Assembly: GCA_034661075.1 (NCBI GenBank)
Contig: JAYEKP010000098.1
Coordinates: forward strand, 1 to 59,984
Length of the DNA stretch: 59,984 nucleotides
Direction of reading: 5' to 3'
DNA from: Bacteroidota bacterium
Lineage (GTDB): Bacteria; Bacteroidota; Bacteroidia; Bacteroidales; UBA12077
The notes under the pieces were generated by a model. That model was not told the origin of the DNA. It worked only from the letters and a program-made list of their open reading frames with translations, and ran no database searches. Each line of letters starts with the position of its first letter. The stretch's first letter is position 1. This document shows positions 2,771 through 33,581 of the stretch, piece by piece. The translations under genes were made by a program, and so were the position numbers.

Positions 2771-3229
2771 ATGAATAACGAATATAAAAATTTTGTAATC
2801 AGGGTTTATGGGTTGTTTGTTAATTCTCAAAAAGAGATTTTGATTAGTGATGAGTATCAGCTAGATATGAAGATGACTAAATTCCCGGGGGGAGGAATGC
2901 ATTTTGGCGAGGGGACGAAGGATTGTTTAAAACGTGAAATTATGGAGGAAATGGGACAGGAGATTGAAATAGCCGAACATTTTTACACTACCGATTATTT
3001 CCAGCCTACTTATTTTTACGATAATTTTCAGTTGGTTAGTATTTATTATCTGGCTAAATTCAAAAACGAATTAAAATGTAAGATATCTACAAAACCATTC
3101 GATTTTTCCGAACTTAAAAATGGAAATATGTCCTTTCGTTGGGTTTCTATTGCTCAATTATCCGAAAAGGATATGACTTTTCCCGTGGATCAGAAAGTGG
3201 TTGGTTTATTAAAACAGCGAATTCTATAA
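2771..3229 (+). CDS. NUDIX hydrolase
   Basis: Nudix box FPGGGMHFGEGTKDCLKREIMEE. Confidence 0.9.
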   Translation: MNNEYKNFVIRVYGLFVNSQKEILISDEYQLDMKMTKFPGGGMHFGEGTKDCLKREIMEEMGQEIEIAEHFYTTDYFQPTYFYDNFQLVSIYYLAKFKNELKCKISTKPFDFSELKNGNMSFRWVSIAQLSEKDMTFPVDQKVVGLLKQRIL

Positions 3230-17476: not shown

Positions 17477-17842
17477 TTTAGCTGACGGTTTTTGAAAAAA
17501 ATCATTGGGTTAGCAGATACATAGGGGTGAAGACGAAGTAAAAACTAAAAACTAAAAAGCTTATTGGATTTACATACATAATTTTAAAAAATACTGTAGT
17601 TGATAAATATGGTAATGGTATCCGTCCAGCCGTTTCAATCGGCCAGACGGATTGGTAACAACAGTACAGCAGACATTCCTGTCTGCTGAAAAAATGAAAC
17701 AGTCTTGTCTGCCGAAAGAATACGACAACCCAGCGCACAAGAATGTGCGCTGTACTGTACTTTTTGGTAAACCGAAGGGTTAATCCCTCGGTTATAAACA
17801 ATACCTCCTATAAAAAAAATGCCACTGTTGAAAAGTTTTGGT
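17477..17842. repeat. Composite REP-like hairpin cassette, copy A
   Basis: Hairpins at 17620-17652, 17667-17688, 17731-17752 and 17770-17793; homologous to 27650-28128. Confidence 0.85.
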
Positions 17843-18063
17843 TGAATATACACTCAATCGGTATTATGTATTTGATCTTTTAACGCTGATGTTTATCAAT
17901 ACTTTTGCTGCATTTATCAAAAAAAAGAAAACCCTTTTTATTTACGTACGTTAAATAAATTTAGGTAAAAGGGGAAAGAGTATTTGTAAAAAAACAAACA
18001 AAATAGATTAAATTTAACCGATTGTTTTGGATTGCTGGCAGTTGCTATTTAAAAAAATTTTAT

Positions 18064-18071
18064 TACTTTTG
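18064..18071 (+). promoter_or_regulatory. Candidate -7 promoter box of the giant surface-protein gene
   Basis: TACTTTTG about 65 nt upstream of the ATG. Confidence 0.45.
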
Positions 18072-18134
18072 GTTTTTAAATTACATTGGGAAATTTTTGA
18101 TTCAATTAGCTAATTATTAACCTTATAATATTAG

Positions 18135-21100
18135 ATGTTTAAAAATTATTATCATATGATTAAATTAAGGAGATTTTTATTTTTAGTATTATTCATTGGA
18201 ATTTCCTTAAATACTTTTGCTCAGACTGTAATTTTATCTGAAGATTTTAATGGAAGTTTCCCTGCAGGATGGTCCAATATTGTCATTGATGGTCCTCCAA
18301 GATTCCCGGGCTGGGAATGGACTGATGTTGGTGGAAATCATGGAGGACAGCTCAATTCTACTACATCAGCCAACGGTTATATGATCTTGGATTCTGATCA
18401 GTATGGTATAGTGGGAGTAGGAGTAAACGAGGATGCTGAATTAATATCACCTTCATTTGACTGTAGCGATAAGGATATTATTAATTTTTCTGTTGAGCAT
18501 TGGGCCCGTTCTTATGGTAACGCTAATATTACAATATCTGTTAGCTCAGATAATTTTACAACAGAGGATATAATTTATAATTGGAGTGGTGGAATCGATG
18601 AAACTAATGGGGCGAATCCTGTTGTCTCAAATTTTGATATTTCAGCTTATGCAGCAAGAGAAAGTAATGTGAAAATAAAATTTAAATGGCAGGGTTCCTG
18701 GGATTATTGGTGGTTAGTTGATGATGTTCAGATTACCGGCCTAGAAGCACCCATTGGTAATACAACCGATTTGGTTTACTGGCTCCGCGGCGATTTAGGT
18801 GTAACTGGTGCTACCCCAATAACAAATTGGGCAGACCAATCATTAAATGGCAACGATGCGACGCCTGGTGGTACAGGACCCGACCAGATTGTTTCCCCTG
18901 ATATGAATAACCAGGAAGTAATGTCTTTCGATGGTAATCGTGAATTAAATATTGCCGATGATCCCAGGATAAATACAGGAACCGGGTACGATGGAACAGA
19001 AAGGACTATGTTTGTTGCATTTCAAACAGGAGCAGATGTAACTTCTACCCAATATATTTATGAACAGGGAGAAAATGTAAATGGAATTGGTGTTTATATA
19101 AAGAATGGAAATTTATATGTTACGGCTTATAATAATGACGCCGCAGATCGAGTTACGGTCTATGAATCTGTTAGTACCAACACTCCATATATTTTGTCGT
19201 TTAACTGGAATAACGGGGCGCTTTCTGCAAAATTAAATAATGTCAACTTTACTAATCAGTCTTCGACAGGAAATATAAATTCTATTAATAGTCACTTAGG
19301 GGATATATCCATAGGTTTTACTGATGGTACTACAAGAGATGAGACAGGAACAAGTGTTGGTGGAGGATTAAACTTTTCAGGAAAGATCGCAGAATTAATT
19401 TATTATGATGCAGCACTAACCGAAGTGGACGAAGTAGAAATTAATAATTACTTAGGCGACAGGTATGGGGTAGATGTTAGTGTAGACTACGACTACGATA
19501 TTTACTATTCCTATCAAACAGGCGACTGGGATGATCCCGATACCTGGACCTTTGATCTGGGAGGTACTACATTAACACCCACTGATATTCCGAATAAGAA
19601 CGATAAAGTAGTAATTTTAAATGACAGAACCGTTACCCTGACTACTGATGTAGATACTGCCGGGTTGGATATTACGGTGAAAGAAGGAGCTGTCCTGGAT
19701 TTAGCAAGCTACACCTTTACTAATGGTATAGCTACCCTTCAGGGGCAAGGTACTTTTAAGCTCGCTTCGGTTAATTATCCGTCTGTAACATCCAATTTGT
19801 TTGTGCTTGCCGGAGGAGGAACCACCGAATATTACAATGCTGCTAATTTTACTTTACCTCCTGCGCAAACCGAATACAACCATTTGCGGATTAATACCCC
19901 CGGCCCCGGCTTTACCGCAACCCAATTAAATAATATTACGCTTAATGGCGATTTACATGTGAAACAGGGCACATACCAAATTAATGATAACTCAGCAGCC
20001 TGCCGACAATTAACCATTCATGGGGATGTATTGGTGGATAATGGCGCAAGTATTACTACTGGTACTGGAAATACAGTTAGTGGTATCGAAGATGGAGGAA
20101 CAGCACCGTTCACAAATTACTACGACTTAAACTCACACAGGGTAGTTGTTTATGGTGATTTTACCAACAACGGAACCGTCCGGTTTACCAATCAAAGTTA
20201 TCCGGTATACAATGCCTTCCCAACTGATGGTATGGCAACGGTGTATTTTATGGGAGCAACTAACAATACCCTACACTGTAATGGTACCACCGATTTCTAC
20301 AACCTGGTGTTGGATAAAGGGATTGACCAGACCTATAAACTGTCCTTATATTCAACGGCTTACCAGAATTTCAGGCTTTTTGGACGGAACGATATTGGAG
20401 GTGAAAATGGCGGAGCAAATCCTGATTTACGAAAAGCTTTGTGGATTCGTACCGGTACATTGGAGCTTAAAGGAATGACCATTATTCCTTCATTAACTGA
20501 AGCCAACACAGGAGGATCACCCAATGGAGATTTTTACGTACCTGCTAATGCAGCTCTTCACATCAGTGGCAGCGAGGTAATTGTTTTATCTACAGCTGAC
20601 GATTATCGCGAAGTTAATCTGGCTTATGGGGTATCTGCAACATCCAACGATCAAATTGGAGTTCGTACATCAGGTGGTACACAGTCATTCTCTATATATG
20701 GAAAATTGCAGATTGATAATGGGGTTTTCTCCACTAGAGAATCAGGCGGTATTATCACCTGGGATGTTTCGTCAGGGGTATTAGTTATTAACGGCGGTAT
20801 TGTGGATGTAAAACAATACCGTTCGGCAGGAACCTCAGGTGGATTAGCTTCTTATACTCAAAGTGGTGGTACATTCCTTTTACGTGGCCGCTTTCAGCGT
20901 ACCCCGACCGCTTATTCATCTATTGCCAACCTAAAGGATTTTTCTACCGCAACGTTAAATACTACAAGAGAAACAGGAGGATTACAAGGTAATCTGGGAA
21001 CGTTTAACATTAATGAAGCCCCTAACGTATTCAGTATGTCTGGAGGAACCATACGTATTTATGATGTTTGTGGTACCGGAGAGAGTGAAGCCTTTCAGGT

Positions 21101-24100
21101 CTTTTCCGACGAAAACAATAATAGTGTAACCGGAGGAACCCTTGAAATTGTACCTACAGCAGGTACCACCGGTACAGATGCTACAGAATTTAGGATAGAA
21201 ACGACTGCAGACCTTTATAATCTTTCTATAAACCGCGCAAGCAGTACTGCTTCTGTAGATGTGAATCTGTATGATTTAACGGTAATTAATGACTTAACCA
21301 TTACTTCCGGAGAATTCGTGGCTAATGATTATGATATAACCATTGGTGGTGATTTTATCGTGGAAAACGGAACCACTTATACTCCTGGAAATAACTGGAC
21401 CATATTTAATGGAACGGGAACACAAAGTTTTGAAATAAATACAGGATCAGCCTTGGATTTGTATAAGTTTATGCTCGATAAACCTTCTGGTTATGTTTTA
21501 ACCATAGCCGGAACACAAAATGTACTGAATGTGGTCGACTCGCTGATGATTCAAAAGGGAACGCTGGCGGATGGCGGAAAAACCATTTATATGAACGGTA
21601 GTTTGTTGTATAATTCAGGAGTGCATGAAGGTACCGGTAAAATTGTGATGAATGCAACGAGCCCACAAATCATTACAGGAGATGGTAACGGCGTTTTTGA
21701 AAATATTGAGTTGAATAATACCGATGGCAGTGCAGCACCTGTTTCTTTAGGAGCAAATACAACCATCAATGGTACACTTACTTTTTCGCAGGATAATTTA
21801 TTTGACATTTCTACCTACAGATTAACCTTTGGAGCAGATGCAACGGTAGTAAATGCCGGAACCAATCGATTTATTCAAACGGCCGGAAATGCCGGAGATG
21901 GAGGAGTTAGTAAGGTTTATTCCACTTCATCAACAAGTTTTACCTTTCCAGTGGGAGCTCCTTCTACTAGTCATGCGGCTGCTGCCGAATATTCCCCGGC
22001 TACTTTATCGTTTAGTACTAATCCAACAACATTTGGAACAATAACAGTGGTGCCGGTAGGATACGAACATCCCAATACAACTAATAAAAACAGAAGCTTA
22101 ACTTATTTCTGGCGAACCAAATCCGAAGGGTTTACATTAGGTTCAGCTGTTATAAATCATGCATATACTTATTCTGATAACGATGTTATTGATAATGGAA
22201 CAACTATTACAGAAGATGAATATGTTGCAGCCATGTATGATAATGCATCCTATACATGGACTAAGTATAATGTAACAGATGTGGAGGATGGTACGAATAC
22301 AATAGGAGGAACAGGAACATCTTTGGCATCACTTAATTACATTGATGGTGAATTTACTGCTGGTGATGATACACCGATCGCTGATGATCCTTTTGGAACA
22401 CCGGTAGTTTATTATAGTGTTGCAGATGGTTTCTGGGGTGATGCATCAACTTGGTCGAATACAAGTGGAGGAACACCTGGTGCAGGTGTACCCGGGCAAA
22501 ATGATGTTGTAATTATAGAAAACAATCATACTGTTGAATTAGAACATAATGGGGCTGATTATCCAATGAATTATGATGTTAGAAGTTGTGCAACATTGAA
22601 AATTGAGGAAGGTTCAGTGTTAGATATTAAAAGTAATACTGCCAGTACGTTTAGTACAGTTTTAAGTCATCCTAATGGTAATGGGTTATTTAGAGTTACC
22701 ACTGAAAAAGCTCCTGATAATTCAGAACCACAATTTTTTACTTTTCCTTCTGGAGATTTTTCAGATTTTAATTTGAATGGTGGAACAACCGAATACTATG
22801 ATATAGATGGAACAGTTGGAGCTCTTTATATTTTGCCACCCAATGTTACGCAATATGGAAACCTTATTCTTACTGCCAGAGGAGGCGCTAATTTGGTATT
22901 GCCAAATAATTCATATACGACAATAAATGGCGATTTTACATGTACTGGAAATCAAACTATAGCATGGATCGCTATGTCGTGGAATACAACTGTCGGGCCT
23001 TATTATACCGATGATTATGATCCTACACTGGAAAAAACAGTTCACATTAAGGGGGATATGTTAGTTGATGCAGGAAGCTTTGAGTTTTTTAATGATGAAG
23101 CAGTCCAACATTTAATCGTGGAAGGAGATCTTACTATTGCTGAAGGCGCTGTTTTGGAGACATATGGGGATTATCCATTTGCTACGCCTGTAGTTACCAA
23201 TACTATTAAAATTGGAGGGTCATTAACTAATAATGGTACTTTTAGATTAAGACGAAATGCCGAAGGAAGAACATATATAGTTAATGCAACTTTTTATGGG
23301 GGAAATACTTCAAGAATAACGAATACAGCCGGTACACCTACAACCATTTTTAATGATGTTACTGTTAATAAAGGTACATCACAAGCCGATTCCTTAATTG
23401 TTGATATTGAAGGGACCTTATCAACCCCAACAGATGCTTGGCTAACCCTTGAAAATGGAACATTTTATTACGAACATGACGGCGATTTAAGAATTACTGA
23501 AGACAGCCAATTTACCATTCCTGCAACAGCTGCTCTTTCAATCAACTCTCCGGGTAATACAGTATATCTGGCCAACGATAATGTAAATGATAACGATGTT
23601 TACCTAAACGGAAAACTAACCATTATTGACGGAGATGTTTTTATAGGTCAACCGGGTGCCCCAAGCAATAATAATGATATTGAGTATTCGGGTGGTGGAA
23701 ATTCTACCATTGATATTCAGGGCGGTAGTTTGACTGTGAATGGACAAATTAGGAGAAATCCATCTACATCAACAGGTATTTTAAAATATAATCAATCAGG
23801 TGGAGCTGTTACCATTAATGGGCGTAACACCATTACTGAAAATGCAAAACTCGAAATCTTAAATAATGGAAGTGAATTCAATATGTCCGGGGGTACACTC
23901 ACTATTGTGCGTGGAGGTGGAGGTGGAGGTGGAGGTGGAGGAGGAACCTTTGGTGATTTATACCTTCGTCCGGATAACTCAACCGTAACTGGAGGAGAGA
24001 TAATATTTAACCCCGGCGCTGCGGGTGCTCAAAATTTTATTTTTGATGCCGATATCCCCATTTGGGATTTAACAGTCAATACTGATGCAAATGTCGAATT

Positions 24101-27100
24101 ATTAGTGAGTCCGCTAACTATTAAAAACGACCTTACTATTGCAAGCGGAGGAACCCTGGATGCCAATATTAATTTTGATATACCGATAACCATTGAGGGT
24201 AATTTTGACAATTCAGGAATCTATGAGCATCGAAATAACTTAACTACATTTAGTGGAGGTACTCAACAGATTTTGGGAAGTGCTGCAATTGAATTCTATG
24301 ATTTAAAGGTTGATCCTGTAACAAGTTTGACCTTAGATCGTGATGCAAATGTTCAGAATAATTTGATGATTAGCAGGGGAACATTGGTTTGTGATGTGAA
24401 TTCAGTTTATGTTCAAGGTAATGTAACTAATAATTCAACTTATAGTGACAATAACGCAGGATTGATACTAAATGGTACTAAAAAACAGCAATTAATTTCT
24501 GGGACAGGTACTTTTGGCCGCTTGGAATTGAATAATTCACAAGGTGCCAGAATAGAAAATAATCTTTCTTTGCAAGATGATTTGATATTAACTAAAGGAA
24601 TTTTGGACATCAATAATAAACTTTTAACCTTAGGCCCTTCAAGCAACATCTTGGGTGCCCCTTTTGATGAAACTAAAATGATTATTTCCGATGGAGTATT
24701 TAGTGATATAGGTTTACGTAAGTACTTTAATATATATTCAGGTGCAAATCAGACTTTTACTTTCCCAATAGGTACTTCAGGGAAATATACTCCGGCAATT
24801 TTAACATATTCAGATATTGCCAATGTAGGTTATATTCGTATTAATAATATTAATGATAATCATCCTGGTGTTTTTGATGAATCAAATGTACTTGATTATT
24901 ATTGGGAGGTTGAAAGTGATGGAATAACAGGGTTTAATGGAAGTCTCTTATTTAACTATCTCGAAGAAGATATTGAGGTTACTGGCTCAAATACCGAAGC
25001 TGATTATATAGCTGCAGCATTATTACTACCAGGTACAAGTTGGTCAAAAGCTGCACCGGGTGCTGGTACCGATAGGGTTGATGAAAACAATAATACAATT
25101 ACTTTTAATTTTGCCGGAACAAATTCTTTGTCAGGCGAATTTACCGCTGGTATTGATAATGCATTACCCGATAATGTACCTGAGTTTACCAGTATTAATG
25201 ATGGCGATTGGTCTGATTCCGATAATTGGGTTCAAACAGGAGGGGATACATTTGAATTAACAGGAGCTCCCAACGGTTTTATTATAGTTATTGATTCTGA
25301 TGATGAAGTTTCTACAGATATTAATTACGCATCTGCTTATAGAATAACTATTAATGGAGAACTTAAAGTAAATAAGCCTACTTATGGACACAATCTTGGT
25401 ACGGTTTCAGGAACGGGAACCTTATATCTTGAAAGCGGAATGTTCCCTGCTGGCCGTTATACCGATTTTCTGGATTGTGCAAACAACGCTACCCTCAAAT
25501 ATGGAGGAACTGGAACCTATAATTTAATAGCGGATCTGTATTCTTCTGTTCCAAACTTACATTTTACAGGAACAGGGACAAGAATTTTACCTAATAAAGA
25601 CCTTACTATCTGCAACCAATTATTAATCGATGGGCCTACATTGGATAATAGTGCAAATAATAGAAAGTTAATTATTCAGGGAACCATGGAACGTTATAAT
25701 ACCGGCGCATTTAACAGTGGTACCGGAGCAAACGCTACGGTAAGTTTCGTAGGTTCTGCTGCTCAAACCATAGGTGGTACTCTGGGCGATTTTACAGGAA
25801 CCAATGCATTTAATAACCTGGAAATTAATAATAGTGCCGGCTTAACCGTAAATTCAGGAGGTGCCATTGAGGTGGGCGGTAATTTGTTATTAACCAACGG
25901 GAATATTGTTACTTCCTCAACCAATACATTTACCATTACAAATGATGCTATAAATTGTGTATTTCCTGCCGGAGGAAGTTTTTCTTCATACGTAGACGGG
26001 CCTTTAACCAAGTATATCCGACAGGGAGATGATTTTAAATTCCCCATTGGTAAAGGCGATACATTAGGCAATAAACTTACATTATCATCCATTCGTCTGG
26101 GTACCATTGCCTGGACAGCCGAATTTTTTACACCAAACCCAACCTATACTGATTTTGCAAGTCCGTTAACTTACGTAAATTCTAAGGAATATTGGACCAT
26201 AACAGCAAATGATGGAGATGAGGCTAAGGTGGGATTGGATTGGGATCCACAAAGTGATTTAACCCCGCTGATGACACAGAATGGTTTGAGTGATATGCGT
26301 GTTGTAGGTTTTAACACGGGAACAACACAATGGGAAGAAATATCCTCTACTCAAAGTGGAGATTATAATAATGGTACCGTAACTACATCAACTGAAATTA
26401 TTATTCCTGCGAGTGGATCAAGTGATTTTACAACCGCTTGTGTAAATGTTACCAAACCACGGGCAAGATTAAATCCTTCAGGAGCTGTTTGTGGCGACGA
26501 AGGCATTCCTGTTGCATTTACCGGTGTGGATGCAAGTGATTTGGATTATGTGTTAACTTATGAAAAAGGGGGTGTTTTACAGCCTTCTGTTACTATTACT
26601 TCAGCTGATTTGCCTTATATCTTGCCAACAGATGCCATTGGTACTACTTATGAGTTAATTAGTTTTACCTATAATGAGCCCGTTAGTCCTAAATCAGGGG
26701 TTGTTGATCCGGCAATAATTACAACATATACGGTTCCAACTACTGCTGATGCAGGCAATGATCAGTCGATTTGTGGGGGAACTTCAGCGGTTATGGATGG
26801 AAATACACCGGGTGTTGGTACAGGCCAGTGGAGTGTGGTAAGTGGTACCGGAGGATCATTTGTAGATCCAACCAACCCTACCACAACGTTTAACGGAACC
26901 AATGGTACGACTTATACCTTGCGATGGACGATTACCAATGGAGACTGTTTTTCTACAGATGATGTTGTAATAGCATTTCCATTGTTTCCCGAACAACCTG
27001 ATGATTTTACCACGAGTTCGGCAATTGTTTGCCAGGGAGATGAAGATGTAGAATATACCGTTCCTAATGATCCTTCGGTTACATATACCTGGGGTTATGA

Positions 27101-27599
27101 TGTTGGTACTGGAGCTACAATTGTTGGATCAGGAAATAGCGTTACGGTTGATTTTGCAAACAATGCTACAAGTGGAACATTATATGTATTTGCAACCAAT
27201 GGTTGTGGTGATAGCGATCGAAGAGAAATTGATGTAACTGTAAATGAGATGCCACAATTAACCATTACAGTTGACCCCCTTGTAGATACAATATGCGATG
27301 GAGAAACAACGCGTTTAGAAATTGACTTTACAGCTGGTTCAGGCACCTATGATTTTACAATTACTGATGGAACAAATAGTGAAGATTTATCTGGTATTAC
27401 CGATGATCCATATACTTATGAAAAGGCACTGAATTGGGTAGATGATGGGACTCCCGATACTGATTATAATTTTATCATTACAACTATTACCGATAGTAAT
27501 GGTTGTAGCAATACCAACCTGGGGAGCGAAGCTGTAAAAGTTTTTAAAATCCCGGGTTCTGGAGATGTTTACCATATTTCCAACGATTGGAATAATTAA
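18135..27599 (+). CDS. Giant secreted adhesin-like protein (3154 aa)
   Basis: Sec signal ending TFA-Q. N-terminal MAM/cleaved-adhesin-like jelly-roll (WQGSWDYWWLVDDV), LamG-like lectin domain (LVYWLRGD..WADQS..IAELIYY), three G8/beta-helix-like modules, C-terminal Ig/PKD-like repeats. No type A or B CTD. Domain names are by-eye inference. Confidence 0.85.
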   Translation: MFKNYYHMIKLRRFLFLVLFIGISLNTFAQTVILSEDFNGSFPAGWSNIVIDGPPRFPGWEWTDVGGNHGGQLNSTTSANGYMILDSDQYGIVGVGVNEDAELISPSFDCSDKDIINFSVEHWARSYGNANITISVSSDNFTTEDIIYNWSGGIDETNGANPVVSNFDISAYAARESNVKIKFKWQGSWDYWWLVDDVQITGLEAPIGNTTDLVYWLRGDLGVTGATPITNWADQSLNGNDATPGGTGPDQIVSPDMNNQEVMSFDGNRELNIADDPRINTGTGYDGTERTMFVAFQTGADVTSTQYIYEQGENVNGIGVYIKNGNLYVTAYNNDAADRVTVYESVSTNTPYILSFNWNNGALSAKLNNVNFTNQSSTGNINSINSHLGDISIGFTDGTTRDETGTSVGGGLNFSGKIAELIYYDAALTEVDEVEINNYLGDRYGVDVSVDYDYDIYYSYQTGDWDDPDTWTFDLGGTTLTPTDIPNKNDKVVILNDRTVTLTTDVDTAGLDITVKEGAVLDLASYTFTNGIATLQGQGTFKLASVNYPSVTSNLFVLAGGGTTEYYNAANFTLPPAQTEYNHLRINTPGPGFTATQLNNITLNGDLHVKQGTYQINDNSAACRQLTIHGDVLVDNGASITTGTGNTVSGIEDGGTAPFTNYYDLNSHRVVVYGDFTNNGTVRFTNQSYPVYNAFPTDGMATVYFMGATNNTLHCNGTTDFYNLVLDKGIDQTYKLSLYSTAYQNFRLFGRNDIGGENGGANPDLRKALWIRTGTLELKGMTIIPSLTEANTGGSPNGDFYVPANAALHISGSEVIVLSTADDYREVNLAYGVSATSNDQIGVRTSGGTQSFSIYGKLQIDNGVFSTRESGGIITWDVSSGVLVINGGIVDVKQYRSAGTSGGLASYTQSGGTFLLRGRFQRTPTAYSSIANLKDFSTATLNTTRETGGLQGNLGTFNINEAPNVFSMSGGTIRIYDVCGTGESEAFQVFSDENNNSVTGGTLEIVPTAGTTGTDATEFRIETTADLYNLSINRASSTASVDVNLYDLTVINDLTITSGEFVANDYDITIGGDFIVENGTTYTPGNNWTIFNGTGTQSFEINTGSALDLYKFMLDKPSGYVLTIAGTQNVLNVVDSLMIQKGTLADGGKTIYMNGSLLYNSGVHEGTGKIVMNATSPQIITGDGNGVFENIELNNTDGSAAPVSLGANTTINGTLTFSQDNLFDISTYRLTFGADATVVNAGTNRFIQTAGNAGDGGVSKVYSTSSTSFTFPVGAPSTSHAAAAEYSPATLSFSTNPTTFGTITVVPVGYEHPNTTNKNRSLTYFWRTKSEGFTLGSAVINHAYTYSDNDVIDNGTTITEDEYVAAMYDNASYTWTKYNVTDVEDGTNTIGGTGTSLASLNYIDGEFTAGDDTPIADDPFGTPVVYYSVADGFWGDASTWSNTSGGTPGAGVPGQNDVVIIENNHTVELEHNGADYPMNYDVRSCATLKIEEGSVLDIKSNTASTFSTVLSHPNGNGLFRVTTEKAPDNSEPQFFTFPSGDFSDFNLNGGTTEYYDIDGTVGALYILPPNVTQYGNLILTARGGANLVLPNNSYTTINGDFTCTGNQTIAWIAMSWNTTVGPYYTDDYDPTLEKTVHIKGDMLVDAGSFEFFNDEAVQHLIVEGDLTIAEGAVLETYGDYPFATPVVTNTIKIGGSLTNNGTFRLRRNAEGRTYIVNATFYGGNTSRITNTAGTPTTIFNDVTVNKGTSQADSLIVDIEGTLSTPTDAWLTLENGTFYYEHDGDLRITEDSQFTIPATAALSINSPGNTVYLANDNVNDNDVYLNGKLTIIDGDVFIGQPGAPSNNNDIEYSGGGNSTIDIQGGSLTVNGQIRRNPSTSTGILKYNQSGGAVTINGRNTITENAKLEILNNGSEFNMSGGTLTIVRGGGGGGGGGGGTFGDLYLRPDNSTVTGGEIIFNPGAAGAQNFIFDADIPIWDLTVNTDANVELLVSPLTIKNDLTIASGGTLDANINFDIPITIEGNFDNSGIYEHRNNLTTFSGGTQQILGSAAIEFYDLKVDPVTSLTLDRDANVQNNLMISRGTLVCDVNSVYVQGNVTNNSTYSDNNAGLILNGTKKQQLISGTGTFGRLELNNSQGARIENNLSLQDDLILTKGILDINNKLLTLGPSSNILGAPFDETKMIISDGVFSDIGLRKYFNIYSGANQTFTFPIGTSGKYTPAILTYSDIANVGYIRINNINDNHPGVFDESNVLDYYWEVESDGITGFNGSLLFNYLEEDIEVTGSNTEADYIAAALLLPGTSWSKAAPGAGTDRVDENNNTITFNFAGTNSLSGEFTAGIDNALPDNVPEFTSINDGDWSDSDNWVQTGGDTFELTGAPNGFIIVIDSDDEVSTDINYASAYRITINGELKVNKPTYGHNLGTVSGTGTLYLESGMFPAGRYTDFLDCANNATLKYGGTGTYNLIADLYSSVPNLHFTGTGTRILPNKDLTICNQLLIDGPTLDNSANNRKLIIQGTMERYNTGAFNSGTGANATVSFVGSAAQTIGGTLGDFTGTNAFNNLEINNSAGLTVNSGGAIEVGGNLLLTNGNIVTSSTNTFTITNDAINCVFPAGGSFSSYVDGPLTKYIRQGDDFKFPIGKGDTLGNKLTLSSIRLGTIAWTAEFFTPNPTYTDFASPLTYVNSKEYWTITANDGDEAKVGLDWDPQSDLTPLMTQNGLSDMRVVGFNTGTTQWEEISSTQSGDYNNGTVTTSTEIIIPASGSSDFTTACVNVTKPRARLNPSGAVCGDEGIPVAFTGVDASDLDYVLTYEKGGVLQPSVTITSADLPYILPTDAIGTTYELISFTYNEPVSPKSGVVDPAIITTYTVPTTADAGNDQSICGGTSAVMDGNTPGVGTGQWSVVSGTGGSFVDPTNPTTTFNGTNGTTYTLRWTITNGDCFSTDDVVIAFPLFPEQPDDFTTSSAIVCQGDEDVEYTVPNDPSVTYTWGYDVGTGATIVGSGNSVTVDFANNATSGTLYVFATNGCGDSDRREIDVTVNEMPQLTITVDPLVDTICDGETTRLEIDFTAGSGTYDFTITDGTNSEDLSGITDDPYTYEKALNWVDDGTPDTDYNFIITTITDSNGCSNTNLGSEAVKVFKIPGSGDVYHISNDWNN
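23913..23945 (+). repeat. (GGAGGT)n microsatellite encoding Gly11
   Basis: Four GGAGGT units plus GGA x3, in frame. Confidence 0.95.
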
Positions 27600-27649
27600 A
27601 AATATTTTTAGCAGGATAAATCTGCTAATCATAAAACGTTCTTTGAAAA

Positions 27650-28190
27650 GTACAGAAGACTTTTTTAACTACCTGTGGCAGTCCTGTCTGTTGAAAAAAT
27701 AAACAGCTTTAGCCGGTTTTTTTGGAAAAACTCATTGGGCTGGCAGAGAGACAAGGGTAAAAAAAGTGAGTAAATGCCGGAGACTGATGAATAAAATGAA
27801 AAAAAAATCCGGATTTATTAACAAACCTGGTTTTAAAAAAAATGCTACTGTTTAAAAAAAAAATTTTGGTAAGTCACGGTGTGAATTCCTGAATAAGGGT
27901 AGTTCATAGTTTTTTATAACTATAACTTGCAAAAGGCTCATTGTATCCGTCAAGCCGTTCTAATCGGCTAGACGGATTGTTAAAAGTACAGCAGACATTC
28001 TTGTCTGCTGAAAGAGTGAAGCATTTTTGTCTACTGTAATATACTCAGCGCACAGGACTGCCTAAACGGCAGTTAAAAATGTGCGCTGTACAGGCAGGGA
28101 TAAAAACACACGGGTTAACTCGTGTGTTATATTTGCGCCCCGTCCTGATCCCGATAGTTATCGGGATTATCGGGAGTTATCGGGATGGCG
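27650..28190. repeat. Composite REP-like hairpin cassette, copy B, with an extra partial unit and a palindrome array
   Basis: Hairpins at 27945-27977, 27989-28010, 28046-28088 and 28105-28128; partial unit at 27650-27693; atcccgatagttatcgggat with ttatcggga x3 at 28148-28186. Confidence 0.85.
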
Positions 28191-28566
28191 AGAAACAAAA
28201 AATGAGGGTATTGCCAGAAAATAAGAACGAGTTATCAAAAAAAAATACTATATTCGTCTATAGTAACTGTTTGTTAACGGAATATTTTTGGCATTTATCC
28301 TTTAAAATAATACATTTACACGTTTTTTTAATGGATTAATCAAAGGAAGGTTAAATAAAGAAACAAGATGTTTATAAAATCGTTAAATATATTTAGAAAA
28401 TTAACAAACTGTAAAATATTAAAAAATAATGCCTATGATGAAACATTAAAAATTAAATAAGTCCATAAAACAATGACTTAAATTACTATAATATATAAAT
28501 ATAATAACACATAAAAATTATTGAAAATTAAACATTTAATTAAATACAAACTTAAATTTTGAGATT

Positions 28567-29514
28567 ATGAAAAAAACAAACTTTTTTAAAATGGTAATGA
28601 CGCTTGTTATGGCGTTTATGGTTACAGGAGCTTTTGCTCAGGTGTACGAAGATGGTAATTACACTGAGAATCAGTTAGAAGATATTTACCAGACAGCTGG
28701 TTCTGATTTTGGTCTTTATGTCATACCAGATGCAAATTATAGTCCAGAATATACTACCAATGGAACAATTGGTGCAGGTGTAGAATGGACATGGACATTT
28801 GATGCTGGTCTTGGAACAGCATCAGTTACAAGTGGAACTGCTCAAAGTTCAAATTATGTGGAATTTACGAATCCTACAACTACTGGCTCACCTTATACTG
28901 TAGATGTTGAGGAATCAAACACAGCTGTTGCTTGTACTGGTGGTGGTATAAGTCAAAAAATAAATGTTATAGATGCTCCTTCAGCTCAAATTACAACATC
29001 TGATCCAGCTACAGCTTGTGGTAACCAAGCTGCTAATTCTGTAACAATTGAATTTACAGAAGATGTACCTTCTGCTCTTGCAGGTTATGCATTTGCTGTG
29101 ACAGAAACTGTTGATAATTTATCGGATCTAGGTGGTAGCCCTACCGTTAATAATGTATCAAGTACTGTAGATTTTGTTGACTATCCAACAACTAATAAAC
29201 TGAATACAATGAATGATTTGACAGGTGCAGCATCTCCTTATTCTTATTCTTTTAATACATCTGCTCTTGATTTGCAAAATAATAAGATTACTAGGTATAC
29301 TTACACTATTGTAAAAGCAACTGATGCACCAGTTGCTGCTGATGATGGTCTAATCTCTGCAATAAGTCAGAAATCAGAATATATTAGTAATGTTATTAAT
29401 GGTAATGTCTTAACTACATATTCTTTTGGAGCAAAAACAACTTATGTTGCGATTGTCGTTCCGACTCCTGAAACAGGACCAATTTATCATATACCTAATA
29501 ATTTTGCGTATTAA
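28567..29514 (+). CDS. Secreted two-Ig-domain-like protein; candidate major filament subunit
   Basis: Signal peptide ending AFA-Q; T/S/A/V-rich beta composition; ends PETGPIYHIPNNFAY, matching the giant protein's C-terminus. CDS is secure, role is inferred. Confidence 0.75.
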   Translation: MKKTNFFKMVMTLVMAFMVTGAFAQVYEDGNYTENQLEDIYQTAGSDFGLYVIPDANYSPEYTTNGTIGAGVEWTWTFDAGLGTASVTSGTAQSSNYVEFTNPTTTGSPYTVDVEESNTAVACTGGGISQKINVIDAPSAQITTSDPATACGNQAANSVTIEFTEDVPSALAGYAFAVTETVDNLSDLGGSPTVNNVSSTVDFVDYPTTNKLNTMNDLTGAASPYSYSFNTSALDLQNNKITRYTYTIVKATDAPVAADDGLISAISQKSEYISNVINGNVLTTYSFGAKTTYVAIVVPTPETGPIYHIPNNFAY

Positions 29515-29610: not shown

Positions 29611-29997
29611 ATGCAAAAAAATATTAAATATTGGATTGAATTGTCTGATTATGACATGGAAACGGCAGAAGCTATGCTCAATAGCAAAAGATTTCTGTAT
29701 GTGGGCTTTCTGTGCCACCAGACAATAGAAAAGATATTTAAAGCATATTATACGCATGTAAAATAAGAAACAGCGCCATTCTCTCATAGTTTATCCTACC
29801 TGGCAAAAAAGGGAGATTTTTACGATCTTTTTACCGAAAGCCAGAAGGATTTTATCGATCAGATTGAACCATTGAATATCGAAGCAAGGTATCCATCGCA
29901 TAATGAAAGGTTAATGCAAAGCCTTACCGAACAAAAATGCATGGAAATAATTAAGCATACAAAAGAGATTCAATCGTGGATAAAAACGAGGTTATAG
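29611..29997 (+). pseudogene. HEPN domain gene with an internal stop (missed by the ORF track)
   Basis: MQKNIKYWIELSDYDMETAEAML..YVGFLCHQTIEKIFKA..VK*ETAPFSHSL..NIEARYP..WIKTRL; TAA at 29764-29766. Confidence 0.88.
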
Positions 29998-30278
29998 AAA
30001 AAGTTAAAGCTTATAAAGCATTATTGAAAAATCATTTCAATATGCACTCGGTATATCTTTTTGGTTCGTATGCTAAAGATAACCACACAGAAGATAGTGA
30101 TATTGATGTGGCGGTTATTGTTGATCAGGTCGATGGCGATTTTTTTGCGATTAATCCTTTACTGTGGAAATTGAGAAGGCAAATTGATGATCGAATTGAA
30201 CCGATCATTATTGAAAAAAAATACGATGATGCAAATTTCCTGGATGAAGTTATTCGGACAGGCATTGAAATAAAATAA
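29976..30278 (+). CDS. Minimal nucleotidyltransferase (MNT), HEPN-MNT antitoxin
   Basis: YLFGSYAK..EDSDIDVAV motif; overlaps the HEPN 3' end; GTG start. Confidence 0.92.
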   Translation: MDKNEVIEKVKAYKALLKNHFNMHSVYLFGSYAKDNHTEDSDIDVAVIVDQVDGDFFAINPLLWKLRRQIDDRIEPIIIEKKYDDANFLDEVIRTGIEIK

Positions 30279-30303: not shown

Positions 30304-31314
30304 TTGAAAAAATATCATAACAGATTATCATTTTTAGTTATTCTAATGTTAGGATTAGGATTAAAAGGTTATACTCAATCTGATTTGCCGGTAGCCTGTG
30401 GTGGCGAAACAGTTCGCTGCGGTGTGGTAGGCGATAACGGCAATTCTGTGTTTTTCTGGGAAGTTACAGGAGGCACCATTATTAATAATTATAACGATTC
30501 AGTGGATATTCAATGGACATCGGTTGATGGGATGAGAACCATTACAGTTACTGAAACCAACTTGTATGGTTGCGAAGGCGAGCCATATTCTCAGCAACTG
30601 CTGGTTTCGTCGCCTTTTGTTGACTTAGGTGGGGATGGAGAAGTTTGTGCGGGTGAAACGTATGAATTTTTTGCTTCGGCAGATGATGTTTCCTCTTACC
30701 TGTGGCAGGACGGAAGCTCCGGAGAAACTTTTATTACCTCCGAAGAGGGCGATTACTGGGTACGTGTTGTCGATGAGTATGGATGTGTATCATCCGATAC
30801 CGCAGGTTTAATTGTTCATCCGTTACCGGATGTTGATTTAGGGCATGACACCACACTTACTGCCGACGATCAGCAAATTACCTTTGATGTGAGTGAGTAT
30901 GGTACGTTCTACGATTGGTTTGATGGTAGCAATGCTTCAACCTATACGGCATATACTCAATTAGAAACCCAGGAAATTTGGGTTAAAGTAACCAGTGAAT
31001 ATGGTTGTGTGGGTGCAGATACCGTGTATGTTGAATTTGGTGAATTTACAATCCCAACTGCTTTTACACCTAACAACGACGGGCATAACGATGTTTGGAA
31101 AATTGATTTCTTATTTTGCTTTCCAGATGTTACTGTTGATGTTTATAATCGTTGGGGCGAACGGGTATTCCATTCTAAAGGATATTCATCCGATAAACAT
31201 TGGGATGGTACCGATGAAAAGGGTAAGAAATTACCTATGGATGCCTATTATTACGTAATTGACTTGCATAATGGAGAAACACCAAAAGTGGGTCATATAA
31301 CCATTATTCGTTAA
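30304..31314 (+). CDS. Small secreted Ig/PKD-like protein with T9SS type B (gliding-motility-associated) C-terminal domain
   Basis: IPTAFTPNNDGHNDVW..VYNRWGERVF..WDG..YYYVI..GHITIIR; Y.WQDGS Ig repeats; signal peptide; TTG start. Confidence 0.92.
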   Translation: MKKYHNRLSFLVILMLGLGLKGYTQSDLPVACGGETVRCGVVGDNGNSVFFWEVTGGTIINNYNDSVDIQWTSVDGMRTITVTETNLYGCEGEPYSQQLLVSSPFVDLGGDGEVCAGETYEFFASADDVSSYLWQDGSSGETFITSEEGDYWVRVVDEYGCVSSDTAGLIVHPLPDVDLGHDTTLTADDQQITFDVSEYGTFYDWFDGSNASTYTAYTQLETQEIWVKVTSEYGCVGADTVYVEFGEFTIPTAFTPNNDGHNDVWKIDFLFCFPDVTVDVYNRWGERVFHSKGYSSDKHWDGTDEKGKKLPMDAYYYVIDLHNGETPKVGHITIIR

Positions 31315-31350
31315 ATGTTTGTAACTTAGTAGGAAAGAATTTTTATAAGC

Positions 31351-32331
31351 ATGATGAAAAAAATAGTAATATTATCCATTGTTGTTTTGCTGAATACACT
31401 CGCTGTATTTGGACAACACGATTTCTCCTACAGTCAGTATATGAACAATAAATTCCTGGTTAACCCTGCCTTTGCAGGCAGTGAAGGATTTACCTCTTTT
31501 GATTTTTCTGCCCGGCAACAGTGGTTGGGATTCGAAAATGCGCCCAGTACACAGTCCATCAGCGGGCAAACACGAATATTAAAAACAAGCTATGTTGCCA
31601 AAGCCCGATCGGTTAGAAAAAGAATACGTAAAAGACGACCCAGTGGAAGAGTTGGGTTAGGTGCTTATGTATACAATGATCAAAATGGACCCATTGGCAA
31701 AACAGGAGCTGAATTAACCTATGCCTATCACATTTTTATTAATAATGGACAATTGTCGTTAGGTTTATCGCTTTCGGCTTATCAATTTAGGGTAAATACC
31801 AAAGATCTTACCACTGCTGATGATTTTGATCCACTAGTAAGTCAGGCAAGGGAGAGTATGTTTATTCCCGATGGTAGTTTTGGTATTTTTTATTCTTATC
31901 AACCTTTTTATGTGGGTGTTTCGGCGAAAAATTTATTTCAGGCTGCCCTTAAATTTGGGCAGGATAATAGTTTTGCCGATTACCAACAAATCCGGAATTA
32001 TTATTTTATGACCGGTTATCGATACGATATGGAAAATGATTTTGAGATTGAACCTTCCATATTACTTAAAACCACAGAAGTCTTTAATTTACAGGCTGAT
32101 ATATCCTTACTAGGTTATTATAAAAGAGACTACTGGCTTGGATTCTCTTATCGTACCGGAAATGCTTTTGTTACCATGATTGGTATTCGGGTAGATAAGA
32201 TTAACATTGGCTACGCTTTCGATTATTCGTTAAATGATATTCAACGAATAAGCTACGGCTCTCACGAAATTGTCCTTGGATTAAAGTTTGGTGATAATGC
32301 AAGACGTTACCGTTGGCTAAATCGTTTCTAA
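31351..32331 (+). CDS. T9SS membrane protein, PorP/SprF family
   Basis: YSQYM.N..LVNPAFAG, RQQWLGF..AP, TYAYHI, GFSYR, GYAFDY and GSHEI motifs; adjacent to the type B CTD gene. Confidence 0.93.
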   Translation: MMKKIVILSIVVLLNTLAVFGQHDFSYSQYMNNKFLVNPAFAGSEGFTSFDFSARQQWLGFENAPSTQSISGQTRILKTSYVAKARSVRKRIRKRRPSGRVGLGAYVYNDQNGPIGKTGAELTYAYHIFINNGQLSLGLSLSAYQFRVNTKDLTTADDFDPLVSQARESMFIPDGSFGIFYSYQPFYVGVSAKNLFQAALKFGQDNSFADYQQIRNYYFMTGYRYDMENDFEIEPSILLKTTEVFNLQADISLLGYYKRDYWLGFSYRTGNAFVTMIGIRVDKINIGYAFDYSLNDIQRISYGSHEIVLGLKFGDNARRYRWLNRF

Positions 32332-32342
32332 AGAATTTTGAA

Positions 32343-32579
32343 GGATCACCGCCATCCCTGGCGGTATTTTATAAATACATGATAGAACAGTTCAATTGGG
32401 TCTCTGTTCGTTTTTCATTCCATAATCGTTTTGATTTAGTTTTAATATTATGCATGAACCGGCTGGAAGCCGGCGATCTTTTTTGTAATACCGGCTGGAA
32501 GCCGGCGATCCATTTTAGCTGCCTGAAACCGGCATTCCAGCTGGATCACCGGCTCCCGAAAGTTTTCGAAACTGCCGGT
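32343..32579. repeat. REP cluster left of RAYT
   Basis: gatcaccgccatccctggcggt at 32344; accggctggaagccggcgatc at 32458 and 32490; variants at 32528-32579. Confidence 0.9.
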
Positions 32580-32647
32580 ATTAACTATTATTAATTCTAC
32601 ACCTGAATTTACATAATTTGGAAAAAAATAGTAGTTTTATACTAAAA

Positions 32648-33258
32648 ATGTCCAAACATCAAGTTCCAGAAGAATATAGAAGAAAGTTGCCTCACATACA
32701 GCCAAAAGATGCTGTTTATTTTGTTACCTTTAATCTTAAAGGAGCATTACCTTTACATATTTTAGAGCTATTAAGAGATAATTTTAAGGAGGGAATACAT
32801 AATTTACATCACAACCATAAAATAAAAAAAGAGGCTTTTGAGAATTATTACAATCAAATTAACGATATTTTAGATGATGGAGAATTTGGACCTCATTGGT
32901 TGCAAAATCATCACGTAGCTCAAATTGTAGCTGATAGTTTCCATTATTTAGACCATAAAGTATTTAAGTTAATATGCTTTTGTATAGTAATCATGTACAT
33001 TTTATTGTATATAAATTAGATAAACCATTACATAATATCATGCACTCATTAAAATCATATACAGCTAATCAATGTAATGATGCATTAAAAAGACAAGGTA
33101 GATTCTGGCAGCGTGAATATTTTGATCGTATTGTGAGAGACAGAAATGATTTGACAAAAAAAATTGAATATACGATAAATAATCCAGTAAAAGCTGGTAT
33201 TGTAAATTATTGGAAAGAATACTTTTTTACCTATTGTTGTTCTGAATTTATTGAATAA
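32648..33258 (+). mobile_element. REP-associated tyrosine transposase (RAYT, HUH/Y1), frameshifted
   Basis: RRKLPH..YFVTF; NHVH HUH motif; SLKSYTA, FWQREYFDR and Y..NNPVKAG motifs; frameshift near 32986 just before the HUH. Confidence 0.9.
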
Positions 33259-33287
33259 TAAACAATAAATAAATAGTGGTTACTTTT

Positions 33288-33497
33288 ACCGGCTTCCGAA
33301 AACTTTCGGGACTGCCAGAGATCCTTTTGGATCACCGCCATCTTAGGCGGTATTTTCGATAATATAGACAGAACCATTATTTTTAATCTCTTGTCGTTTT
33401 ACATTTAATAAATGTTTTGAAATAGATTCTTATATTCCACAACTACCGGCTGGAAGCCGGTGATCCTTCTTGTAATACCGGCTGGAAGCCGGCGATC
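33288..33497. repeat. REP cluster right of RAYT
   Basis: Variant at 33288-33323; gatcaccgccatcttaggcggt at 33330; accggctggaagccggygatc at 33445 and 33477. Confidence 0.9.
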
Positions 33498-33581
33498 TAT
33501 TAAATAAATCATCCAATTTATTAAACATTATAAAGCTAAAATGCGTATTTTAGTAAACATAATCTTTAAAAGTAAATCATT

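Follow-up and report, generated by a model that had tools for sequence, protein, structure and literature searches.

Why a giant adhesin gene should stand between two copies of the same series of hairpins is the question raised by contig JAYEKP010000098.1 (C98) of the Bacteroidota bacterium assembly GCA_034661075.1, a stretch of 59,984 nucleotides (nt) referred to here as the window. A gene for a 3154-residue protein is flanked there by two intergenic regions, A and B, each with a cassette of four hairpins designated H1 to H4. The genome comprises 3.03 Mb in 247 contigs at 34% G+C and includes the Bacteroidales small signal recognition particle (SRP) RNA. Three readings of the cassettes had been proposed from the sequence, namely a composite of repetitive extragenic palindromic (REP) units spread by a REP-associated tyrosine transposase (RAYT), a shared structured RNA or regulator, and recombination handles for the adhesin gene. 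The first of these was borne out by the analysis and the other two were not. Both cassettes are best explained as mosaic clusters of small extragenic palindromic repeats, resembling the bacterial interspersed mosaic elements (BIMEs), that built up in the intergenic stretches flanking the giant gene, a reading to which we assign a probability of roughly 0.85.

Direct reading of the sequence placed the four hairpins in the same order and on the same strand in both regions (Table 1), as the original prediction had stated. Searched with BLAST against the whole genome, A matched B over 169 nt at 72% identity (E 3.6e-21; E 4.8e-22 in another run), repeat segments of 58 and 53 nt were 83% and 81% identical, and the mean column identity of the two regions aligned with MAFFT was 73%, the longest exact common run being 16 nt. 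H3 was an inverted relative of H2, with 28-nt arms that were 82% complementary and spaced by 42 nt. The outer AAC/GTT and the GGGTTAA core of H4 were kept, and the inner four to five stem pairs differed yet stayed complementary. A decayed half-unit lay between H2 and H3 in both regions, and H3 of B carried an additional 21-nt hairpin nested in its loop. The extra unit just past the giant gene is the inverted partner of this H3, with 24-nt arms that were 79% complementary and 394 nt apart. Two further shared blocks, the second in shuffled order, proved real though weaker; each was individually marginal (E 0.004 and 0.011), and in the genome they exist as this single pair only. The likeness between A and B extended over the inter-hairpin spacers as well as the hairpins, and because these spacers are also conserved the composite of about 190 nt (H1-H2-H3-H4) would have been copied as one unit. 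The surrounding 400-550 nt may afterwards have kept gaining and shuffling modules.

On its own strand the unit underlying H2 and H3 is 25 nt long and consists of GTA, a 9-bp stem, a TTCY loop and the complementary arm. A search pattern that left three stem positions free matched this GTAC-headed unit in the genome 4 times exactly, 12 times at up to two mismatches and 19 times at up to four, and 14 canonical hairpins were confirmed by stem extension. The genome accordingly holds about 14-19 units at 8-10 loci, every one of them intergenic. Stems of the copies differed with complementarity retained, as expected of compensated variants, and inverted pairs were seen in H2/H3 and in head-to-head pairs 2 nt apart on contig C59. 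The unit was present at no more than one mismatch in 16 of 37 genomes of the genus, and a reversed-pattern control gave 0 in all 37. A scan of public genomes, one per species, returned 88 units at 76 loci with 11 stem variants. Since 74 of these 88 units were fully paired, compared to approximately 1.6% expected by chance with three free positions, the GTAC-headed hairpin itself is under selection.

Five matches to the Y1 transposase domain PF01797 were obtained in the genome. One was a gene on C59 encoding a 206-residue HUH/Y1 protein (39.3 bits, cut-off 23), located between arrays of GTAC-headed units that include the nested-hairpin variant seen in H3 of B. Flanked by the same units, the C59 RAYT is most likely the cognate enzyme of H2 and H3. 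HVH and Y...N were invariant in its alignment, and a profile of the protein with four relatives matched E. coli TnpA-REP (4ER8) best among solved structures (E 6.5e-7), followed by the IS200-type TnpA 2XM3 (E 2.8e-5); the single sequence gave no match against the PDB. The next NCBIfam family after the REP transposase family discussed below was the IS200 transposase at 30.3 bits, under its cut-off of 55. Orthologues at 85-94% identity were found in three genomes (G022, G007 and G021), each with units within about 25-250 nt. Six of the nine genomes with at least six units had a RAYT homologue at E<=1e-49, and two of the 21 genomes lacking the unit had weak or fragmentary RAYT matches.

The other hairpins belong to dispersed palindrome families as well. 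H1-like 33-nt palindromes occurred at 10 loci in the genome and in 14 of the 37 genus genomes, and the H4 family of 24-nt palindromes, AAC-N4-GGGTTAACCC-N4-GTT, occurred at about 10 loci and in 12 of the 37. The inner four pairs of this family vary freely and remain complementary, which accounts for the complete change of the H4 stem noted in the original prediction. H1, H4 and the REP unit are separate families that do not travel together across the genus: G015 had 39 H1, no REP and one H4, G005 had 15 H4 with neither REP nor H1, G024 had 11 REP and no H1, and G043 had five H1 with neither of the others. An H4 copy in G021 occupies the place that the 5' arm of H1 has elsewhere, so copies of one family do insert into another. 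A fifth dispersed palindrome, TCCCGATA-N2-TATCGGGA, was located at 17 sites including C9:90015, C81:97, C190:111 and C243:25759, often within a longer repeat and often at contig ends, the C243 copy adjoining a tRNA-like sequence. The number of its accompanying TTATCGGGA half-sites varied among metagenome contigs, with 9- and 10-nt deletions at 28158 and 28167 in X2 and X3.

Taken over the five palindrome families, 50 of 51 sites were intergenic. Neighbouring genes were mostly of housekeeping type and included those for a short-chain dehydrogenase, P-type ATPase, FGGY kinase, tRNA methyltransferase, APS kinase, DHFR, ClpX, MutS2, IPP transferase, UvrB, Glu/Gln-tRNA synthetase and proline dehydrogenase, and a few were type IX secretion cargo genes. 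Composites recurred in other genomes of the genus. Three tandem units of approximately 300 bp were present at G022:C40:11680-12523, each with an H1-like palindrome, a GTAC-headed unit, a hairpin of a second REP family, an inverted GTAC-headed unit and another H1, and the array ran into the contig end. The H1-REP-REP composite recurred in rearranged form in G021, and the composites of G022 and G021 adjoined a MerR/B12 regulator, a serpin and unannotated genes. The proposal of a REP doublet within a RAYT-spread composite was upheld by the flanking of the RAYT with the same units, the dispersed extragenic copies, the co-varying stems and this recurrence of H1-H2-H3 in a sister genome.

A structured RNA (leader, small RNA or riboregulator) or a regulator-binding platform co-controlling the giant gene and the following gene for a 315-residue protein would account for the strong predicted folding of the two regions, which gave z scores of -6.1 and -9.0 against shuffled sequences with none of 200 shuffles equally stable for either region. 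Compensatory stem changes fit such an RNA too, as does one G-U pair in H4 of B that is tolerated on the plus strand only. However, the stem covariation is equally well explained by selection on DNA hairpins, and every hairpin type was found elsewhere in both orientations beside unrelated genes. The original prediction held that many scattered copies with no link to surface-protein loci would refute a role specific to this locus, and such scattering was seen for all four hairpins. The shared sequence is also distal to the genes. From the end of the cassette to the ATG the distance is 342 nt for A (giant gene, 18135) and 439 nt for B (315-residue gene, 28567), and the stretches of 290-440 nt directly preceding the start codons (17843-18134 and 28129-28566) had no similarity to each other by MAFFT or BLAST. 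No Rfam family lay over either cassette even at E<=1, and the only sub-threshold match, Ysr100 at 22 bits (cut-off 47), was outside the cassette at 27605-27715. Together with the loss of cassette B from the orthologous site of G043 described next, where the downstream promoter-proximal segment is conserved, these results make the RNA or regulator very improbable.

Genome G043 has the same gene order of giant gene, 317-residue gene, PorP and TPR, and its giant gene is 52% identical over the first 600 residues. The spacer between the first two genes was 417 nt in G043 versus 968 nt in the window. All sequence from the stop codon of the giant gene (27600) to about 28130 was missing in the alignment, whereas the promoter-proximal stretch 28270-28566 before the start codon of the 315-residue gene aligned well, which places cassette B past the end of the giant gene and short of the conserved promoter-proximal DNA that precedes the next one. 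Judged from this alignment, the cassettes would be insertions and not conserved regulatory DNA. The region upstream of the giant gene was too diverged to be aligned with G043 and G044, the upstream gene differs, and no match to the cassette was found in that region of G043.

By position it is plausible that clusters of REP origin are nonetheless used by the cell, with cassette B and the extra unit stopping transcription and/or blocking 3' exonucleases on the 9.5-kb giant mRNA and with H1 and H4 acting as bidirectional terminator-like palindromes. Termination and mRNA-stabilising roles are named for REPs in the part of PMC3733652 drawn on here. The giant gene stops at 27599 and region B begins about 50 nt further on, upstream of the next gene's conserved promoter-proximal segment, and many copies of H1 and H4 are found in the gap between convergent genes, within some tens of nt of the preceding stop codon. 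On the other hand, no T-run follows any of the four hairpins on the plus strand, and a terminator scan flagged H2 only, on the minus strand, using a consensus of the sigma-70 or E. coli type that may not fit Bacteroidales. Cassette A has divergent genes on its two sides, a setting in which a terminator would serve no evident purpose, and G043 does without the insert. Such a use is unlikely as the account of the cassettes, and as a secondary role it is compatible with the mosaic repeat clusters.

The two cassettes form direct repeats 10.3 kb apart that bracket the giant gene, and could in principle serve as recombination handles for its deletion, swapping or amplification. Run X5, from another study and 90-95% alike, contained three contigs with short A-to-B joints. 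These joints had sides of 22-32 nt at a likeness setting of 90, were positioned exactly on repeat units, and are read as cross-matches between repeat copies; the read-mapping tool attributes joints of this sort to repeats or to other organisms. The 16-nt maximum exact run, at 72-83% identity, is a poor substrate under the minimal homology requirement of RecA. No contig joining A to B was found in X1-X3, which carry this strain and reproduce the window, although contigs drop rare variants, and G043 keeps the giant gene without cassette B. Recombination handles were thus left unsupported and are given only a very slight chance.

A slight chance is given to a more active version of the REP account, a "loaded REPIN" in which the module of about 190 nt is a self-contained, non-autonomous mobile unit, with unrelated palindromes carried as passengers by its two inverted GTAC-headed units. 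The C59 RAYT would move it in trans, and it would be shared among species of the genus. That enzyme, or slippage between the hairpins during replication, could then excise or move the bracketed 9.5-kb adhesin gene, which would provide a REP-based route to the gain and loss of surface proteins.

For the mosaic repeat clusters, the mechanism proposed is that H2 and H3 are REP units arranged tail to tail, as in REPINs (paired inverted REP units). By analogy with E. coli TnpA-REP, the C59 RAYT may bind the hairpin as single-stranded DNA, for example at the replication fork, and would, by cutting beside the head tetranucleotide, copy the units or move them. H1 and H4 belong to two other palindrome families that are independent of H2 and H3. 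If the cassettes influence the adhesin gene at all, for instance by termination or by protecting the 3' end of its mRNA, this would be a by-product rather than the reason for their presence.

Several observations weigh against this explanation. The head of the unit is GTAC, or GTAA in a partner subtype, and not the canonical GT[AG]G. The number of units is low for REPs, classical cases having more than 100 units per genome; with 247 contigs and several copies at contig ends, the units may be undercounted in the fragmented assembly. The C59 protein scored 79.0 bits on NCBIfam NF047646 (REP_Tyr_transpos), 1 bit under the curated cut-off of 80. No RAYT match at E<=1e-10 was obtained in G023 (10 units), G024 (11 units) or G052 (6 units, 77% complete), which either weighs against a strict one-to-one link of unit and enzyme or reflects unassembled repeats. 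No enzyme was found for H1 or H4. The full four-hairpin composite was present in the genome at A and B only, and a partial composite of H1 and an H3-like unit on C88 was also beside a PorP/CHU_C gene pair. A weak local preference for such loci may exist but cannot be called from these three cases without a background rate.

Repeats of this kind are already well described as REPs, REPINs, BIMEs and RAYTs; selfish elements like these are everyday litter in bacterial genomes. Like the "REPtron" of REP/REPIN and RAYT in E. coli, Pseudomonas and Stenotrophomonas, the elements here are short stem-loops outside genes, headed at the 5' end by a conserved tetranucleotide, with inverted pairs and co-varying stems, and a Y1 HUH transposase gene is flanked by the same units. 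Unlike the REPtron, they have a GTAC/GTAA head, number about 14-19 per genome, reside in a metagenome-assembled genome (MAG) of Bacteroidales, and in some loops carry a nested second hairpin. The canonical head is given as GT[AG]G in the portions of PMC6006769 and PMC3733652 relied on. BIMEs of enterobacteria are outlined in PMC2817692, in the part used, as REPs of alternating orientation interleaved with other conserved short motifs and copied as a composite. The hairpins and spacers shared by A and B and the three tandem composites of G022 are similar to this arrangement, but the accompanying modules (H1, H4 and the TCCCGATA palindrome) are independent dispersed families with their own distributions. 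The case departs from the textbook in four respects. Its head is GTAC, its units are few, some of them carry a nested hairpin, and several independent palindrome families occur alongside.

Two RAYT subclasses are common in Bacteroidetes according to the sections of PMC6006769 used here. The same sections describe subclass 2.4 (group 4 of Bertels; Quentin et al. 2018) as abundant in Cyanobacteria and Bacteroidetes and scattered in other phyla, with proteins of about 194 residues, motifs NH[IFV]H, WQ and YIxNNP, and REPs that carry GT[AG]G. A broken RAYT in the window (32618-33258) is like this subclass in having NHVH, WQ and YTINNP. The C59 protein is alike in NHVH and in its length of 206 residues but differs in WH and YVLDNP. 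Assignment to subclass 2.4 is a guess at the level of motifs, and the C59 protein fits less exactly than the window RAYT.

Tagged palindromic repeats have been reported in eight phyla, including Bacteroidetes, and the part of Di Nocera et al. 2013 (PMC3733652) relied on presents them as having no dedicated transposase. The CGTC-tagged repeats it describes have an unpaired CGTC tag, an 8-9-bp stem, a 4-5-nt loop and a CCA tail. H1 and H4 likewise seem to be without a dedicated transposase, and H1 contains CCGTC. H1 was ruled out as a CGTC-tagged repeat on its features, the CGTC being paired inside the 13-14-bp stem of a 33-nt palindrome.

The duplicated hairpins should consequently not be annotated as a shared riboregulator or switch of adhesin genes. 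The genome offers a compact and well-resolved example of REP and RAYT outside Proteobacteria, with at least two RAYT paralogues that each have their own REP family and three or more "orphan" palindrome families that form mosaics with them, and one REP consensus is common to genomes of several phyla. These families can be used for the annotation of intergenic DNA and for explaining contig breaks in Bacteroidales MAGs, and provide material for testing hairpin recognition by RAYTs.

Table 1. Positions of repeat features in the window around the giant adhesin gene
Feature	Position	Strand	Remarks
Cassette A	17606..17797	+	H1, REP unit (+), decayed half-unit, REP unit (-), H4; 72-83% identical to cassette B
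H1 of A	17620..17652	.	33-nt palindrome of the dispersed H1 family
H2 of A	17664..17688	+	GTAC-headed REP unit, 9-bp stem, 4-nt loop
Remnant 3' half of another REP unit, decayed, A	17700..17714	+	Between H2 and H3; from the repeat family and direct reading
H3 of A	17731..17755	-	Inverted GTAC-headed REP unit; compensated stem change AG/CT to GC/GC
H4 of A	17770..17793	.	AAC-N4-GGGTTAACCC-N4-GTT palindrome family, imperfect copy
Cassette B	27931..28133	+	H1, REP unit (+), decayed half-unit, REP unit (-) with nested hairpin, H4
H1 of B	27945..27977	.	Dispersed H1 family
H2 of B	27986..28010	+	GTAC-headed REP unit
H3 of B	28046..28091	-	Inverted REP unit with nested-hairpin insertion, as beside the RAYT gene on C59
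H4 of B	28105..28128	.	AAC-N4-GGGTTAACCC-N4-GTT palindrome family
Extra GTAC-headed REP unit with hairpin nested in loop	27650..27693	+	50 nt past the stop codon of the giant gene
Shared block 1, copy A	17489..17531	+	79% of 43 nt to 27719-27761
Shared block 1, copy B	27719..27761	+	E 0.004 genome-wide versus copy A
Shared block 2, copy A	17792..17834	+	A-rich ...TGCYACTGTT... module, also in mosaics of G021
Shared block 2, copy B	27815..27857	+	Upstream of the hairpins here; 82% of 44 nt versus copy A, E 0.011
Fifth dispersed palindrome TCCCGATA-N2-TATCGGGA, then extra TTATCGGGA half-sites	28142..28195	.	Directly after cassette B

The GTAC-headed consensus was also observed outside Bacteroidales. 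A 9-Mb MAG labelled Fuerstiella (Planctomycetota) contained 14 units at 13 high-GC (56-61%) loci, a MAG labelled Neomarinimicrobiota contained five, and single units were present in MAGs labelled Pirellulaceae and Fidelibacterota. The Bacteroidales SRP RNA was not found in any of these four non-Bacteroidales-labelled MAGs. Genome G054 has a RAYT homologue that is only 36% identical, with identical GTAC-headed units on both flanks; one would not expect a REP sequence to stay so alike in different phyla when the enzymes next to it have diverged that far. A public MAG labelled as a gammaproteobacterial genus (G057) gave the Bacteroidales small SRP RNA at 108.8 bits and has close homologues of the RAYTs of the study genome, and its taxonomic label looks wrong.

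Among the genes of the window, the giant protein (18135-27599) has a G8 domain at residues 484-562 and a PKD_6/Ig_7 "CHU_C-associated" domain at 2959-3037. Its similarity to the 315-residue protein (28567-29514) is only weak and confined to the C-terminal ends (E 0.003), where both have a similar short terminal motif. A CHU_C protein and PorP/SprF are encoded downstream (30304-32331). Between the 315-residue gene and the CHU_C gene (region 29614-30278) lies a small nucleotidyltransferase gene (Polbeta/NTP_transf_2, 29976-30278), preceded by a frame that is interrupted by a stop codon at about 29766 and that may encode a HEPN-like partner. At the position of the nucleotidyltransferase, G043 has a gap of comparable size.

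The broken RAYT of the window is located at 32313-33500 where a frameshift immediately ahead of the HUH motif divides it into two open reading frames (ORFs), 32618-33019 and 32974-33258. It is paralogous to the C59 gene, with 49% identity in the C-terminal half and 35% in the N-terminal half, and is flanked by a different REP family, ACCGGCTGGAAGCCGG, with two copies per side (32458-32505 and 33445-33492). Two other shared hairpins also flank it. Intact orthologues at 65-78% identity in G049 and G022 had the same ACCGGCTGGAAGCCGG REP flanking, and two tandem copies of this second RAYT lie on the G022 contig with the tandem composites, 4-5 kb away from them. No gene is present at the corresponding position between PorP and TPR in G043.

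Elsewhere in the genome, the Y1 gene on C116 (92.9 bits) had none of these hairpins nearby. The Y1_Tnp match on C65 falls within a long ORF (784-residue open frame; ORFs of 595-660 residues), and an H4-like hairpin inside it was treated as chance. A third RAYT-like gene at G000:C21:8862-9591 (PF01797 16 bits, below the cut-off) had the palindrome CCTACGAGGGTTTGAAACCCTCGTAGG on both sides.

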